IMG/VR virus record: IMGVR_UViG_3300005837_000293
Location: 1-27,238 of that record
Origin: a virus
Taxonomy: Duplodnaviria; Caudoviricetes
Length of the DNA: 27,238 bases
Strand: one strand, 5' to 3'
Under the pieces are notes generated by a model that made no database searches, had not been told where the DNA came from, and saw only the letters and a program-made list of their open reading frames with translations. The translations under genes were made by a program, and so were the position numbers. Of this stretch, positions 4,225 through 25,904 are shown piece after piece (the first letter of the stretch is position 1; each line of letters opens with the position of its first letter).

Positions 4225-4505
4225 AATTTACTTAATTTATTTTGTATTCGTTGTATTTTATTTTGTACTATTGCAGCTTTTTCGTATTGTTCTCTTTCTT
4301 CATACTGCGACAATAGCGTCATAAGTCTAGCCAACTCAGCTAATAATAATTGCTCTTCATCTTGCATTACATTATAGCCAGCGCCAAACATTTGTTCTAC
4401 ATCTGAGGTGAATTGCTGATCCCACTCTTTTTGCTTTTTAATTAAGCCTTCAAGCACTAGATCAGCAACTCTTTCCGCCAAATAATCTAATTCATCTTTA
4501 GTCAT
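4221..4505 (-). CDS. Hypothetical protein with C-terminal UVR (UvrB/UvrC-like) coiled coil
   Basis: EEREQYEKAAIVQNKIQRI resembles the UVR consensus E.YE.AA.+RD.I. Confidence 0.55.
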   Translation of the reverse strand: MTKDELDYLAERVADLVLEGLIKKQKEWDQQFTSDVEQMFGAGYNVMQDEEQLLLAELARLMTLLSQYEEREQYEKAAIVQNKIQRIQNKLSKL

Positions 4506-4729
4506 TAACTTACTTTCTTATATGTCCACTGACCAATGATGTGGTTGTTAATAAATTTACCTTTAGATCTAGCATTGAACAAACCATGCCAGTAAAATGC
4601 AGGTACTTTATTATATTCATATATACCGCCATTTTTGTATGTTAGTACTAAGCGATTAAGCTGTGTAGCGTATGTTGCATCTTCAATGCACTCTGAGTCC
4701 ACTACGACTCTTTCAATTAAATTACTCAT
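4505..4729 (-). CDS. KTSC domain protein
   Basis: VDSECI...Y.....L.LTYKNGGIYEY..VP......L..A.SKGKFIN..I matches the KTSC consensus. Confidence 0.85.
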   Translation of the reverse strand: MSNLIERVVVDSECIEDATYATQLNRLVLTYKNGGIYEYNKVPAFYWHGLFNARSKGKFINNHIIGQWTYKKVS

Positions 4730-6522: not shown

Positions 6523-6557
6523 TATGTTATCGATTTGTTTTCGTACTATTTTTGTAA
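6523..6557 (-). promoter_or_regulatory. Tripartite promoter-like motif P2
   Basis: TTACA-AAAATAG-TACGA-AAACAAAT-CGATAACATA. Confidence 0.85.
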
Positions 6558-6655
6558 TAGTGGACGTGGCAGGAATCGAACCTGCGTTTAGGTAAACAAA
6601 CATTGTTTTCAACTATTTTCTAAGCTTGTGTTTACCACTAATCCTAATCACGCCC
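6558..6655 (-). ncRNA. tmRNA-TLD-like / tRNA-Ala-like small RNA lacking an mRNA-like domain
   Basis: Acceptor stem GGGCGTG/CACGTCC with G3·U70 and discriminator A; T-arm GCAGG-TTCGATT-CCTGC; unpaired D-loop ATTAGGATTAGT; central helix GGTAAACA/TGTTTACC. Confidence 0.75.
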
Positions 6656-6660
6656 ATGAC

Positions 6661-7159
6661 CCCTCACTTGTTTTCAACCTGAAAGGCTTGATGCTCGGTG
6701 GCACGTGTTTCCCGTGAGGGATTAGGAGGTCGCGCGTCATTCATCGGTGTACATTCCGACTTATGCCCCCTGTTTCAGGTATGCCCGTATGTTTTTTGGT
6801 CGGGTTACAGCACCACACTCGTGCCCATACCTGTATATTTGAGAGGCGGACGGGACTGGAATGTTAGGAATGCACGTCATTTACTAGTATGCCCTGACTT
6901 ATATCCTTTTATCTGTTTATCCCGTCTTTCTGCTTAATCAGCCGACGTCATCGTTCGCACAATTACAGGTGATCAATCCTTAGTGCCGTCAATATCTTGT
7001 CGCTGGGTTAGCTTTCCAACCTTAAACCTCTCGTTGCTAGCAATTCACTTATGTGTAATCATCGAGCCGAACCATTATCGCCTTTAATCATACCTAATTA
7101 AGCTACTCGTCTAGCTATTTTAGTAGTTAATAGTGTACTTTCGAACTTTGTTAACTACT
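6661..7159 (-). ncRNA. Cluster of predicted structured RNAs
   Basis: GC-richer region without a credible ORF, with adjacent closed stems: 6661-6667/6714-6720, 6725-6729/6766-6770, 6776-6783/6826-6833, 6841-6846/7027-7032 (inner 6849-6855/6920-6926), 7036-7040/7111-7115, 7122-7130/7151-7159. Confidence 0.6.
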
Positions 7160-7343
7160 TACGTCGCCATGACCGGTGCACTGCAGCACTTGTTGCCTGA
7201 CTGACGATTTGTATTGTATTACCTGTTTTGTGTTCGATAATTGGTACATAACTATAAGTCTCTGTTGTTGAGCACTTTACGCACGTTTTATAGCCTAAGT
7301 CTAATCTTACTGGATGTACTTTATCTCCACATTTACAATACAT
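7155..7343 (-). CDS. Small C4 zinc-finger protein (DksA/TraR-type finger-like)
   Basis: CKCGDKVHPVRLDLGYKTCVKCS resembles C..CG..I...RL......C..C. Confidence 0.65.
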   Translation of the reverse strand: MYCKCGDKVHPVRLDLGYKTCVKCSTTETYSYVPIIEHKTGNTIQIVSQATSAAVHRSWRRK

Positions 7344-7368
7344 AGTTTAATTTTTTATTTGTTACATT

Positions 7369-7403
7369 TATATTATCGATTTGCGTTCGTATTACATTTG
7401 TAA
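7369..7403 (-). promoter_or_regulatory. Tripartite promoter-like motif P3
   Basis: TTACA-AATGTAA-TACGA-ACGCAAAT-CGATAATATA. Confidence 0.85.
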
Positions 7404-7404
7404 A

Positions 7405-8714: not shown

Positions 8715-8749
8715 TATATTATCGACGGTTGGTCGTATTTATTTTGTAA
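8715..8749 (-). promoter_or_regulatory. Tripartite promoter-like motif P4
   Basis: TTACA-AAATAAA-TACGA-CCAACCGT-CGATAATATA. Confidence 0.85.
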
Positions 8750-8990
8750 AAGTGCCATCGTGGTACATAGTGTGTATACTGTTTGAATACTTATGCGATT
8801 CCCATAATTTCGTATGCGAAAACGATCGACCTTTACTACCGGCTTTTTTCATCGGTATTCTTACTCTATTGTATTCTTTATCGGTGAGACCACTGCATAA
8901 TCCGTCAGATTTGAATTTATTACGGTGTTCTTTAGCTTTCGCTATTCGTGAGTTTTTAACGTACTCGCACGCTTCTTTCATTGTCATCAT
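8739..8990 (-). CDS. Hypothetical basic protein
   Basis: 83 aa ORF in operon. Confidence 0.65.
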   Translation of the reverse strand: MMTMKEACEYVKNSRIAKAKEHRNKFKSDGLCSGLTDKEYNRVRIPMKKAGSKGRSFSHTKLWESHKYSNSIHTMYHDGTFTK

Positions 8991-9131: not shown

Positions 9132-9166
9132 TATATTATCGTTATTATTTCGTATTTATTTTGTAT
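9132..9166 (-). promoter_or_regulatory. Tripartite promoter-like motif P5
   Basis: ATACA-AAATAAA-TACGA-AATAATAA-CGATAATATA. Confidence 0.85.
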
Positions 9167-9486
9167 ATACCATAAGTATTTTCCTTGTAAGACTCTAATT
9201 GCTTTAGTCTTCGAGTTATAGTGTAAGGTATATCTTTTACATTTCGGTTTACCCAGTCAACTATATATTGAAATCTTTCTTGAGGACAAGGTATAAGTAT
9301 TCTTTCGTACATTTCAAAGTAATTACCTTTAGTATTTGGTGGTACTTTGCGCACTCTATTTATTTGGTATAATCTATCGTGATTACCGTCTATTCGTACA
9401 TAGCCAGAAGTATAGGAGTATATAAATCTACCGTCTTTTAGTTGGAATTTTTGAGTTCCGTTTTTATTTATATTTACTAATTTCAT
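9145..9486 (-). CDS. Hypothetical protein
   Basis: 113 aa ORF. Confidence 0.7.
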   Translation of the reverse strand: MKLVNINKNGTQKFQLKDGRFIYSYTSGYVRIDGNHDRLYQINRVRKVPPNTKGNYFEMYERILIPCPQERFQYIVDWVNRNVKDIPYTITRRLKQLESYKENTYGIYKINTK

Positions 9487-9841: not shown

Positions 9842-9876
9842 TATATTATCGATTTCACCTCGTATTTATATTGTAA
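9842..9876 (-). promoter_or_regulatory. Tripartite promoter-like motif P6
   Basis: TTACA-ATATAAA-TACGA-GGTGAAAT-CGATAATATA. Confidence 0.85.
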
Positions 9877-9965
9877 AAAAGTATATACTTTGTTTGTAGG
9901 TAAAAAAGTTATTACACCTATTATACTATATCTCTAAGTATGAAAAAAATAATTTATTCAAAAAC

Positions 9966-10013
9966 TGTGACAATAGGTAGTTAAATTAAATATAATAAGA
10001 AGCTATCGTCGCA
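9966..10013 (+). repeat. Inverted-repeat site B
   Basis: TGTGACAATAGGTAGTTAAATTAAATATAATAAGAAGCTATCGTCGCA, intergenic. Confidence 0.8.
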
Positions 10014-10148
10014 TTCTTATTTCAAGTTAATCACCGAAACTTCAATATGATTATAGGTGGTTGCTATACACATCAGTTACGATGCATACTAGGTAGATCT
10101 GTTCAACGTTATTTATACTGGTGATGATACACATCTCAACGCGCCAGT

Positions 10149-10213
10149 CCCTCTTGTATTTACCCTGCCCAGTTTTCCCGTTGCCTGAAGGTTCGGACAG
10201 TCACCCGTGAGGG
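10149..10213 (-). ncRNA. Predicted structured RNA related to element 6661-6720
   Basis: CCCTCACGGG...CCTTCAGG...GAAAAC...CAAGAGGG; outer stem CCCTC/GAGGG, inner CTGTCC/GGGCAG. Confidence 0.45.
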
Positions 10214-10224
10214 GTTAAACTAGA

Positions 10225-10569: not shown

Positions 10570-10604
10570 TATATTATCGTTTACTGCTCGTATTGAGTTT
10601 GTAA
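10570..10604 (-). promoter_or_regulatory. Tripartite promoter-like motif P7
   Basis: TTACA-AACTCAA-TACGA-GCAGTAAA-CGATAATATA. Confidence 0.85.
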
Positions 10605-10606
10605 GT

Positions 10607-10931: not shown

Positions 10932-10966
10932 TATATTATCGTTATTAGTTCGTGTTTAGTGTGTAG
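10932..10966 (-). promoter_or_regulatory. Tripartite promoter-like motif P8
   Basis: CTACA-CACTAAA-CACGA-ACTAATAA-CGATAATATA. Confidence 0.8.
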
Positions 10967-11120
10967 ATAAGTTATGGTCTAACATCTGTTGGAACACGAT
11001 TATCTGCTCAGTCAAATCAAGATACTTGTATTGTGTATTGAAGATTGAATTAGTTACTACGTCGATCATATCGTATTGATCTTTGATTTGTAGTGATTCG
11101 TTGTTGATTTTATATCGCAT
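10956..11120 (-). CDS. Hypothetical protein (54 aa, MRYKINNES...), first gene of the left arm
   Basis: ATG at 11120 downstream of P9. Confidence 0.6.
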   Translation of the reverse strand: MRYKINNESLQIKDQYDMIDVVTNSIFNTQYKYLDLTEQIIVFQQMLDHNLSTH

Positions 11121-11142: not shown

Positions 11143-11177
11143 TATATTATCGGTAATAGTTCGTACTAATACTGTAA
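11143..11177 (-). promoter_or_regulatory. Tripartite promoter-like motif P9
   Basis: TTACA-GTATTAG-TACGA-ACTATTAC-CGATAATATA. Confidence 0.85.
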
Positions 11178-11450
11178 ATGCTATACATATTAATGTGCAT
11201 GTGTATGTGTGATCCTGATCCTGCATGCTGCGACCGGGAAAGCCCAAACATTTGCACGGAATTGCATAGTCAGTATCGTTTGCCAGAGTAATGCTATACA
11301 CGGATCCCTGTAACCGTGATCCTGAAACGTAAACGGCAAGGGGGGCTGGCTAAATAAAACGAGTTTGTGAATAAAGGGTATACAAGGTATGTACGGTTGC
11401 AACATTTCACCTCTATATATCTAACAATTTTTTTTTTACAATATTTTTTT

Positions 11451-19854: not shown

Positions 19855-21408
19855 ATGGAATACAATAATCCGAGCGAAATAGTAAAAACGCTCACATTCG
19901 GCAGTGATGCTAAAAAACAAATTGTCCAGGGCGTTGAGAAATTATCAAATGCCGTAAAGAGCACATTAGGTGCTTCAGGTAAATGCGTAATATATGAAGA
20001 CGCCCTTGGTAAACCGGTGATTACAAAAGATGGTGTAACCGTTGCAGAAAGCGTAGTCTTATTACATCCGGTTGAAAACATAGGGGCAACCTTAATAAAG
20101 GAAGCTGCTAGCAATACTGTGAAAGAAGCTGGGGACGGGACAACAACATCAACTGTGTTAGCACATTCATTGTTAAAAATTGCAAACAAAAAATTAGATG
20201 AAGAAGAAGTTAGAGAACTTAAAGCAGGCATTATTAGTGGTGCTGAAAAAGTTAAAGTATATCTTGATAAGTCCAGTACTCAAGTTGAGGGTAAAATGCT
20301 TAAAAACGTTGCTATTATTAGCTGCAATAATGACGAAGAGCTTGGAACCAAAATTGGGGAAGCTTACGAAAAAGTTGGAAAAAATGGCGTCGTATTGATG
20401 GAAGAGTCTGATACAAACGAAACTTATGTTGAGTTTGTTGACGGTGTTCAATTTGACAGTGGTTTAAAATCCCCTCATTTAGCCACAGATACAAACAAAG
20501 GGGTAGCTGTATTGGAAAATCCATATGTGCTTATAGTATCTTCGCCAATTCCAAATATTAGAAGAATACAAAATGTGCTGGAGCATGTTATAAAGCAAAA
20601 AAGAAGTTTACTAATTGTAGCTGACGTAGAACAACAGCCATATGCAACTCTTTTAGCAAATAAAGTAAAAGGCAATATAAAAGTAAATATAGTAGACTTA
20701 CCTGGCTTTGGCCCAACTAAGCAACAAACAATTGAGGATTTAGCTTTGCTTACAGGGGCAGTAATAATAAACGAGGAGTTAGGGGACGATTTAGATCTTA
20801 TAGACCCTAATGTATTAGGTAACGCTTTTAAAGCTGTTACGGACGATAAAAACACTGTTTTACAAGTTGAAGAGGCTAATGAAGAAATAGCCTTGCGTAT
20901 AATTGATGTAGAAAAGCAAATAGAAGAAGAGACTAACCCATTTTTTAAGAAAAAGCTAGAGCAAAGATTGTCGATGCTTACTGGTCAAGTTGGTATCGTA
21001 TATGTTGGCGCAGATTCAAAAGTTGAACTTAAAGAAAAAAAGGATCGAGTTGAAGATGCAATATATGCTACTAAAGCTGCATACAAAGAAGGTATTGTTG
21101 CTGGAGGTGGTGTTGCTTTGCTAAATGCGTCTAAATTAATTACGCCTAAAAATAAAGGTGAGGAAGTTTTGCTCGAAGCTATTAAAGCGCCTTATAATAC
21201 TATATTAGAAAATGCTGGTATTAATATTGTCTACCCTCAAATTAAAAATAGAGGTATAGATGTTAAGACAGGTAAAGATGTTAATATGATTAAGGCCGGC
21301 ATTATAGATCCGGTATTAGTTACTAAGTCAGCGCTAAAAAATGCAGTAAGTGTAGTAACAACTATAATATCCGCAGATTGTGTAATAAGCAATAAAAGAC
21401 TAGCATAA
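19855..21408 (+). CDS. groEL: Phage chaperonin GroEL
   Basis: AVKSTLG, ITKDGVTVA, AGDGTTT, ELKEKKDRVEDA, EGIVAGGG and GIIDP motifs. Confidence 0.97.
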   Translation: MEYNNPSEIVKTLTFGSDAKKQIVQGVEKLSNAVKSTLGASGKCVIYEDALGKPVITKDGVTVAESVVLLHPVENIGATLIKEAASNTVKEAGDGTTTSTVLAHSLLKIANKKLDEEEVRELKAGIISGAEKVKVYLDKSSTQVEGKMLKNVAIISCNNDEELGTKIGEAYEKVGKNGVVLMEESDTNETYVEFVDGVQFDSGLKSPHLATDTNKGVAVLENPYVLIVSSPIPNIRRIQNVLEHVIKQKRSLLIVADVEQQPYATLLANKVKGNIKVNIVDLPGFGPTKQQTIEDLALLTGAVIINEELGDDLDLIDPNVLGNAFKAVTDDKNTVLQVEEANEEIALRIIDVEKQIEEETNPFFKKKLEQRLSMLTGQVGIVYVGADSKVELKEKKDRVEDAIYATKAAYKEGIVAGGGVALLNASKLITPKNKGEEVLLEAIKAPYNTILENAGINIVYPQIKNRGIDVKTGKDVNMIKAGIIDPVLVTKSALKNAVSVVTTIISADCVISNKRLA

Positions 21409-21668
21409 TGAAAGCAATAAACCATTTTGTAATAGTCAATAAAATAAAAGAGGCACCGAAGAAAGTAGGTGGCCTTGAATTAACAGAAAAGCAGGATAAA
21501 GACGTAAGATATATAAAAGGCGAAGTGCTTAGCGTTGGCGACCAAGTAAAAGAGTTGGTTTCTGAAGGCGATATTGTAAGATATGACAAGCATGCTGGCC
21601 ACGGAATTGAATGGCAAGAAAATCTGTATTACGTTATAAAAATTACTGATATAGTGCTTGTGGAATGA
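21408..21668 (+). CDS. groES: Co-chaperonin GroES
   Basis: MKA+N..V+V...KK.GGL.L...GEVLSVG...V..GDIV.Y...G......+....DI; adjacent to groEL. Confidence 0.88.
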   Translation: MKAINHFVIVNKIKEAPKKVGGLELTEKQDKDVRYIKGEVLSVGDQVKELVSEGDIVRYDKHAGHGIEWQENLYYVIKITDIVLVE

Positions 21669-25109: not shown

Positions 25110-25305
25110 TATAGGAAAAGACTATAAAAATGACGCCATGCACTATTCTGTTGGACAGGAAGTGTATGGTGGTCATACTATAGTTAACATTATAGAGGAA
25201 GAAGAAAAGTACTCTATCTATATACAAAAAGGGGATGATATCATACCATGGAAAGATTTTAACAAAAACATGGCAATTGCTATTGAATATAATATAGATT
25301 ATTAA
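25087..25305 (+). CDS. Hypothetical protein
   Basis: 72 aa ORF in operon. Confidence 0.7.
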   Translation: MNLLRKISIGKDYKNDAMHYSVGQEVYGGHTIVNIIEEEEKYSIYIQKGDDIIPWKDFNKNMAIAIEYNIDY

Positions 25306-25904
25306 TGAAAGGCATTTTTGATTTTGTTGTTATACCTAAAGATGATAGATACAACAATACAAAAAATATAAGCGGCCAAGAATTAATATTAAATACCGAA
25401 TTACAAAACCACAATTTTGTTTCAAGAATAGGTATTGTTATGGCTGCTCCTAGTACCAATACAACAGGCGTACGAGAAGGGGATGAAGTTATATTGCACC
25501 ATAATGTATTTAGAAGGTTTCGGGATATAAGGGGTGTTGAAAAAAATAGCAAAAGCTATTATAAAAACAATATGTATTTTGTTTCTCCGGATCAAATATT
25601 TGCATATAAGCGAATAGTAAAGTGGATTCCGCTTAATGGATTTAATTTTGTTAAGCCAATAAAAGAAGACAAAATGTTTTCTACAAACTTTGAAAAGCCG
25701 TTAGTTGGCGTTTTAAAATATAAAGACCCAAATTTACATTCGGTAAATGAAGGCGACCTTGTTGGCTTTAAGCCTGGTTCAGAATATGATTTTTTAATTG
25801 ATAAAGAAAAATTGTATAGAGTTCCGACCAATTTAATTACAATCAAATATGAATATCAAGGAAACGAAAAAGAATATAATCCAAGCTGGGCGCAAAGCGG
25901 TTAA
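25305..25904 (+). CDS. GroES-like protein, apparently two tandem GroES-like folds
   Basis: First half FVVIP...GIV.A.P...VREGDEV+L; second half FVKPI...GVL......VNEGDLVGF. Confidence 0.55.
   Translation: MKGIFDFVVIPKDDRYNNTKNISGQELILNTELQNHNFVSRIGIVMAAPSTNTTGVREGDEVILHHNVFRRFRDIRGVEKNSKSYYKNNMYFVSPDQIFAYKRIVKWIPLNGFNFVKPIKEDKMFSTNFEKPLVGVLKYKDPNLHSVNEGDLVGFKPGSEYDFLIDKEKLYRVPTNLITIKYEYQGNEKEYNPSWAQSG

Follow-up and report, generated by a model that had tools for sequence, protein, structure and literature searches.

Standard tmRNA (RF00023) is about 365–400 nt long, with pseudoknots, a resume codon and a tag frame, but forms reduced to the alanine-accepting end of the molecule (the TLD) are also known. 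The tmRNA Website lists the gene of Mycobacterium phage DS6A (JN698994, 28478-28560; tmID 11587) as 'TLD only' (PMC4131195, PMC11915505). Strong inhibition of tmRNA in E. coli has been reported for a similar molecule, irrespective of whether it could be charged, and titration of SmpB may be the cause (Mao 2009, as cited in PMC4131195). According to the 2025 update of the tmRNA database, nine standard-form genes lack a tag frame or coding sequence (CDS), and CDS-less tmRNAs persist together with SmpB in mitochondria (PMC11915505). The organellar examples in that account, namely the CDS-less tmRNAs of jakobid and oomycete mitochondria (RF02544) and the ~65-nt plastid forms of Mallomonadaceae, likewise have a TLD without a tag frame. 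They are mostly permuted and are the sole tmRNA of their compartment, whereas the RNA described here belongs to a phage and stands beside an intact host system.

The DNA analyzed here (the window) is the whole of a 27,238-nt virus record, a 27-kb contig of an aquatic phage with genes for Erf, ligase, a sigma-like protein, GroEL/ES and holin. Complete relatives span ~62–69 kb, and we take the phage itself to be a ~65-kb one. A Shine-Dalgarno word was found upstream of only 3 of 35 chosen genes; scarce Shine-Dalgarno words fit a Bacteroidota host, and such a host is probable. The best protein hits of the phage genes did not settle the host.

Sequence and fold of the element

On the minus strand of the window, positions 6655-6558 form a 98-base gene equivalent to the alanine-accepting end of tmRNA alone. 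The 5′ strand of its acceptor stem (6649..6655, with G1, G2 and G3) pairs with 6568-6562 to give G1-C72, G2-C71 and G3·U70, as seen in the sequence, the fold and the RF00023 alignment; pairs of this stem other than G3·U70 covary in relatives. The 3′ strand (6558..6568) carries U70 and A73 (6561), followed by CTA (6560-6558) where CCA is expected. An earlier note on this DNA had read the strand in the same way; its remark that CCA is not encoded is correct and describes an ordinary feature, since DS6A has the same end. Among the host-type tmRNAs that we retrieved, whose tags end in ALAA, CCA is encoded in 2 of 12 Bacteroidota-type genes.

The acceptor leads into a stemless 12-nt D loop (6637..6648), which is placed by the RF00023 alignment, by comparison with E. 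coli ssrA and by the contacts reported in PMC8363625. Position 8 is A8 instead of the U8 of tRNA, and there is neither a D stem nor a 7-nt anticodon loop. In the centroid fold, the two strands of P2a (H2; 6629..6636 and 6591..6598, the latter also supported by the pair count) form a helix of 7 bp (6636-6630/6597-6591), or of 8 bp with the next pair, that encloses 30 nt (6599..6628). We refer to these 30 nt as the cargo slot. A connector (6586..6590) with AC at its end, equivalent to E. coli A334 and C335 by the RF00023 and E. coli comparisons, precedes a T arm of 5 bp with a 7-nt loop (6569..6585), for which both an Rfam match and pair changes were found.

Folding of the element gave a z of -2.48, with 3 of 200 shuffles equally good, and P2a of the window copy, which has 9 pairs with one mismatch, was matched in 1 of 50 shuffles. 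The centroid fold reproduces the helix proposed in the earlier note, including the roughly 30 nt inside it; the minimum free energy (MFE) fold pairs the D loop otherwise. Both TLD ends align with RF00023: in a search of a 751-nt stretch, the match covers model positions 1-374 and scores 41.2 bits (E 5.8e-15), below the gathering cut-off of 47, with 14 nt standing in for 282 model positions. An Rfam scan of the whole window matched the T arm alone, and ARAGORN called no gene at the element. We conclude that the element is a real gene and not a product of chance. Its sequence identifies it as a message-less (TLD only) tmRNA of the DS6A kind; the earlier note had already recognized the TLD architecture from the stemless D loop and the long helix in place of the anticodon arm. 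Novelty of the form is not supported, as the DS6A RNA is already published and the TLD-only form is therefore known.

Like the DS6A gene, the element is in one piece and combines G3·U70 and A73 with a stemless GG D loop, a T arm, an A-CTA end without CCA, and a P2 helix that encloses neither pseudoknots nor a tag. The elbow of DS6A and of the canonical phage type resembles that of hosts, and their P2 inner motif is truncated; in the subfamily described here, the elbow is shifted, the cargo (23–62 nt) can be replaced, and the element belongs to a module array behind a zinc-finger gene. Standard tmRNA, including Bacteroidota-type ssrA (L429, L435-L445), shares both TLD ends with the element, but the 98 nt contain no mRNA-like domain: as the earlier note had seen, the 30 nt inside P2a hold no pseudoknot ring or tag frame. 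Several other classes were considered and rejected. The halves lie in standard order, which excludes permuted two-piece tmRNA (RF04321, RF01849-51; the best match, at 12.6 bits and E 3.2, extends into the next ORF), and the absence of a D stem and 7-nt anticodon loop excludes tRNA (RF00005). No match to mitochondrial tmRNA (RF02544) was listed to E 10, in a listing from which same-clan overlaps are dropped. Bacterial Y RNA gave no Rfam match, and the element's ends lie in an acceptor stem. A separate message piece acting in trans was also rejected, as no tag-like peptide end was found in the window or in loci L001-L178.

Conservation of the shell and its alanine identity

We searched IMG/VR with a pattern specifying the same acceptor and T arm ends and obtained 98 loci. 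Although the pattern also admitted C, 83 of 84 unique matches carried U70, and the sole exception is a tRNA-Tyr; four further matches, called tRNAs with odd anticodons by ARAGORN, are shell elements. When positions 1-3 and 70-73 were left free, at least 99 unique matches were returned, and the 99 listed comprise 23 ARAGORN calls, one with a poor stem and 75 others. Among these listed matches, G3·U70 occurs in 66 of the 75 non-tRNA sequences and A73 in 71, and the remainder of the 75 includes atypical tRNAs and a few shells without alanine identity. A pattern starting with GGGG gave at least 104 unique matches, of which 74 are non-tRNA with good stems, 69 of them with U70. With the acceptor wholly free, there were 111 unique matches: 47 with no detectable acceptor, 28 of the alanine type, and others that are tRNAs or unrelated. 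One GGGCGTG shell in this set has U73; A73 is present in 26 of 27 and G3·U70 in 27 of 27 GGGCGTG-type sequences. G3·U70 and A73, the keys for AlaRS (PMC3968760), are thus retained in relatives when the search leaves them free, and the alanine identity read in the earlier note is supported as being under selection.

From the two loose scans, we counted at least 162 distinct TLD-only RNAs with G3·U70. P2a, which was not a search filter, averages 7.1 pairs over these elements, compared to 4.5 in shuffles. Several kinds of base pair occur in their acceptor and T stems, a variety that is partly circular because both stems served as search filters. In a 12-sequence alignment of hand-picked rows, compensatory changes affect 7 of the 12 base pairs that make up the acceptor and T stems. 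Homologs range from 68 to 107 nt. Neither outcome that the note had set against its reading, namely homologs with a normal D stem and anticodon loop or loss of G3·U70, occurred.

These data bear on whether the element might be a decayed tRNA-Ala or a functionless leftover of a tmRNA integration site. Such a relic would account for a score below the Rfam tmRNA cut-off and for an inner part that is not conserved, but both ends are present with compensatory changes, D stem and anticodon are lacking, 18 of 19 related copies reported score as tmRNA rather than tRNA, and the element is kept across many phages. We consider this explanation highly improbable.

In a few shell variants, pairing persists although alanine identity is gone. 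In L271:297-387 (-), L210:297-372 (-) and L186:298-393 (+), the acceptor stem is re-paired without G3·U70, in some also without A73, and a re-paired acceptor-stem shell without G3·U70 lies in L124 behind 9352 (+). Two TLD copies with differing cargo occur in L037 and L101, as also in G014 and G027. A separate group (L183, L188, L192, L196, L206, L218, L236, L277) consists of recurring phage tRNAs, which combine a TAT anticodon with an A at position 8 and an extended variable arm.

A search of the genome collection yielded nine matches, all on short MAG contigs of unrelated taxa and several with the phage array; we rejected these as cellular genes and read them as binned phage DNA. A blastn search of the element against 50,697 cultured-phage records found only T-arm and chance pieces, none covering 80%. 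TLD-only RNAs escape both ARAGORN and the Rfam cut-off. The count of at least 162 here, versus nine in the tmRNA database, suggests that phage interference with ribosome rescue may be common.

The module array and the cargo slot

The earlier note had described the element as stand-alone. It is instead the last unit of a non-coding array of ~500 nt (6656..7154, minus strand), which the note missed together with the exchangeable cargo. Based on folding and module matches, the array consists of nested structured RNA modules, with units at 7152-7121, 7117-7035 (a carrier holding 7094-7055), 7030-6841 (a carrier), 6833-6773 and 6721-6661. Its fold in the window has a z of -2.53, and 0 of 20 shuffles were as good. 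The upstream anchor of the array is a conserved 62-aa ORF (7155..7343, minus strand) with a CxC..CxxC zinc-finger pattern and a basic C-terminal helix. The distance from this gene to the TLD behind it ranges from 2 to 527 nt across 61 distinct arrays, and the sequence between is a mosaic of nested modules. In retrieved DNA of close relatives, the TLD is absent from 7 of 22 zinc-finger-gene loci, at least one of these loci being incomplete.

The 62-aa ORF is conserved in more than 60 related loci, and its Atlas clusters are phage-only. No Pfam or PHROG match was found, nor a tblastn match among the 50,697 cultured-phage records; a weak Atlas lead points to zf-dskA_traR (DksA/TraR zinc finger) at 0.87, and the protein model (pLDDT 76) has no clear fold match. 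A role of the 62-aa protein as a partner of the RNA gained no support from sequence or fold matches, and the linkage of the two may be plain synteny.

The window array matched no Rfam family to E 10, including the large phage ncRNAs (GOLLD, ROOL and others). At the gathering score, 20 related loci gave tRNAs only, and 20 short loci searched to E 3 gave no array-family match. Contigs from four of the 24 RNA runs listed, all of them assembled (four studies, related strains), cover parts of 6790-7350 and give almost no cover of the element itself; ends, levels and transcription are not readable from such contigs. Two contigs of one RNA run, known only as assembled sequences, end at 6841, near the TLD start of some relatives.

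Other arrangements were noted in related arrays. In L113, L118 and L123, arrays of ~550–600 nt without a TLD lie behind the zinc-finger gene, with a tRNA-Met gene at the end and further modules. A second tRNA-like module, with a closing stem, a variable slot, a conserved YGACGRG and a T arm but no D arm, occurs in 9 of 61 arrays. It lies upstream of the TLD in L018, L021, L038, L100, L109 and L311, and is not found in the window; a related form ends the arrays of more distant phages (L135-L153).

The modules bear what we take to be short internal-loop and T-loop-like motifs. One could suppose that shell and cargo act as a decoy, soaking up proteins that attack or use tRNA and rRNA motifs, such as host RNA-cutting defence enzymes, or AlaRS and EF-Tu. 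Fast cargo turnover would fit an arms race of this kind, and 12 of 20 scanned relatives have ordinary tRNA genes close by. However, there is no anticodon loop to cut, and the modules did not stand out as copies of rRNA or RNase P RNA: pooled 8–10-mer counts for 16S, 23S, 5S and rnpB were not above shuffles, nor did 367 segments show any excess when aligned locally. Single look-alikes of 16S 1218-1239, 23S 682-720, 23S 1277-1327 and the rnpB T-loop fall within the shuffle tail. For one tmRNA, an 8-mer excess was seen (63 vs 42.8; 0 of 100 shuffles), whereas alignment of the modules to eight tmRNA bodies showed no excess overall. A decoy role appears very unlikely.

The sequences inside P2a vary far more than the shell. 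We found 55 distinct inner TLD sequences of 23–62 nt, falling in 38 clusters, and 20 of the 55 also occur outside any TLD, either free or within another carrier (one of 21 matches was dropped because it lay in an unmasked TLD). With shuffled cargo, there were no outside-TLD matches in five rounds. Among seven pairs of loci whose neighbour genes are ≥95% identical, five carry unrelated cargo, and the same cargo is found in 21 of 1320 pairs whose neighbour genes are <80% identical. Three modules of the window (7152-7129, 7094-7055 and 6828-6786) occupy the TLD slot of other phages. For the cargo that the window copy itself holds, no free copy turned up at E ≤ 1e-3; it contains a CAAGC..GTTGAAAA motif common to the TLD of L029 and the module just upstream. 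These data establish the P2 arm as an exchangeable slot for RNA modules that are swapped between close relatives. One caveat here is that chimeric assembly at shared modules may affect single contigs, yet every cargo is held by a P2 stem that pairs, and it is seen again in other records.

The literature searched, PMC9004378 and supplementary data of PMC10690425 among it, yielded no account of such cargo exchange; PMC10690425 lists about 10,000 viral RNA candidates, and single modules may be catalogued there. The subfamily poses a puzzle, in that a fixed alanine-accepting shell encloses an inner arm that changes faster than the adjoining gene.

One answer would be that the TLD shell has left trans-translation and serves only as a scaffold. 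Its RNase P site, CCA, alanine and EF-Tu cap would then provide a processing signal and protective frame, releasing the array modules and displaying one of them as a stable small RNA, with the cargo as the active part. The diversity of the inner sequences, their occurrence outside the TLD and their replacement next to nearly identical neighbour genes all favor this explanation, as do U at -1 in 33 of 54 elements, the second slot-bearing T-arm module in 9 of 61 arrays, and the lack of a terminator behind the element. On the other hand, some cargo is only 23 nt long, and canonical versions with a DS6A-type inner motif occupy the same place; further evidence comes from the SmpB contacts.

SmpB contacts, possible roles and phage setting

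The structure of the complex shows the helix imitating a long variable arm, with SmpB standing where the anticodon would be (PMC3968760). Residues A15, U17 and A334 form the pocket for SmpB Trp122, G19 is essential, and H2 points out of the ribosome (PMC8363625). Compared with E. coli ssrA, the window copy keeps the equivalents of A15, U16, U17, G19, A334 and C335, has C18 changed to A and A20 to U, and has a connector two nt longer. Across the subfamily, G is found at the G19 position in 51 of 53 members (one miss being a pattern artefact), and AC precedes the T stem, as at A334, in 51 of 53. The full canonical elbow, by contrast, is present in 0 of 53, versus 4 of 4 canonical relatives and the retrieved host-type tmRNAs. 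In most members, the D loop is one nt shorter and the connector one nt longer than in the canonical form, and SmpB binding may therefore be weak or lost. Canonical DS6A-like versions occupy the same locus in relatives L100, L109, L311 and L342. On a 177-nt gene tree, three changes are needed between canonical and shifted elbow types, although one clade is not rejected (p-AU 0.066).

The altered elbow in all 53 members is what a shell used purely as a scaffold would predict, whereas the retained G19 and A334 equivalents would be needless for it. Taken together, we regard the scaffold-only explanation as rather unlikely.

No SmpB gene was found in 50 phage records, 29 of which are at least 90% complete. 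Among 26 relatives, there were no genes of the Pth, Pth2 or RF-1 (RF-1/ArfB) families and no full-length tmRNA, every RF00023 match there being ≤152 nt. It follows that the RNA would need host partners, as none of these is encoded in the records examined. This matters for a further possibility, in which the charged TLD and SmpB would enter stalled ribosomes, accept the nascent chain and add one alanine, host factors then freeing the ribosome and so aiding phage translation. Such tag-free rescue would explain the strictness of G3·U70 and A73, and the mitochondrial CDS-less tmRNAs that persist with SmpB offer a precedent. Against it stand the missing phage Pth, Pth2 and RF-1/ArfB genes and the one similar RNA tested, which inhibited and did not help (cited in PMC4131195). 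We consider it quite unlikely.

The explanation that we favor, with confidence about evenly balanced, is that the host processes and alanylates the element, which competes for host SmpB and carries cargo as well. Of the three roles put forward in the earlier note (ribosome rescue without tagging, titration of SmpB/AlaRS to block trans-translation, and a decoy for tRNA-targeting nucleases), SmpB competition is the best supported candidate. The structure, the conserved alanine identity, the retention of two SmpB contacts, the absence of a message and of phage partners, and the exchange of cargo are observed directly; processing, charging and binding are inferred. The RNA would be transcribed at the end of a unit comprising promoter, zinc-finger gene and RNA module array. 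Host RNase P and 3′ nucleases would excise it, host enzymes would add CCA and, to judge from the conserved identity elements, charge it with alanine, and it would then bind host SmpB and EF-Tu in competition with host tmRNA. Stalled ribosomes would thereby receive no tag frame, and tagging for proteolysis would fall. The P2 tip would be free, because P2 points out of the ribosome, and it is there that this phage group places structured modules, which are swapped with the neighbouring array. The cited inhibition needed no charging (PMC4131195), so the strictness of G3·U70 calls for more than titration of SmpB. The changed elbow, the shells that have lost alanine identity and the close relatives in which no TLD was seen also weigh against this explanation.

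Engineered tRNA scaffolds for RNA display place a foreign structured RNA in the inner arm of a tRNA-like frame. The element differs in being natural, based on the tmRNA TLD, endowed with alanine identity and furnished with inserts that are exchanged among phages, and its display role would be conjectural. A tentative reading, possible but on the doubtful side, is that of natural RNA display: a recombining module library would use the alanine-charged, host-processed tmRNA shell as a carrier, one among several. The shell would stabilise a module that changes from phage to phage, and SmpB might bear it to stalled ribosomes; the modules would be decoys or effectors selected in an arms race. Functional cargo would mean that phages deploy a modular set of RNA tools against their hosts; even without a function for the cargo, the collection shows how much change the TLD tolerates for recognition by SmpB and AlaRS.

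A 36-nt two-box repeat, putatively a promoter, has eight copies in the window, all on the minus strand and preceding small-gene groups. One copy (7369..7404) lies upstream of the ORF and array, and the next (6523..6558) starts at the element's end, behind which no intrinsic terminator was found; the others are at 8715-8750, 9132-9167, 9842-9877, 10570-10605, 10932-10967 and 11143-11178. A sigma-70-like gene (1232-1984) may encode a reader of these repeats.

Elsewhere in the window, a non-coding, more GC-rich region with nested stems (9990-10224, minus strand) is matched in 15 of 80 related loci and is a possible further RNA. Another non-coding region (11150-11420), partly matched in 10 of 80 loci, precedes divergent structural genes, and we guess that it may contain a genome end or origin. 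The plus strand carries genes for GroEL and GroES as well as another, longer GroES-like gene (19855-21668 and 25305-25904), and a KTSC-domain gene is located at 4505-4729.
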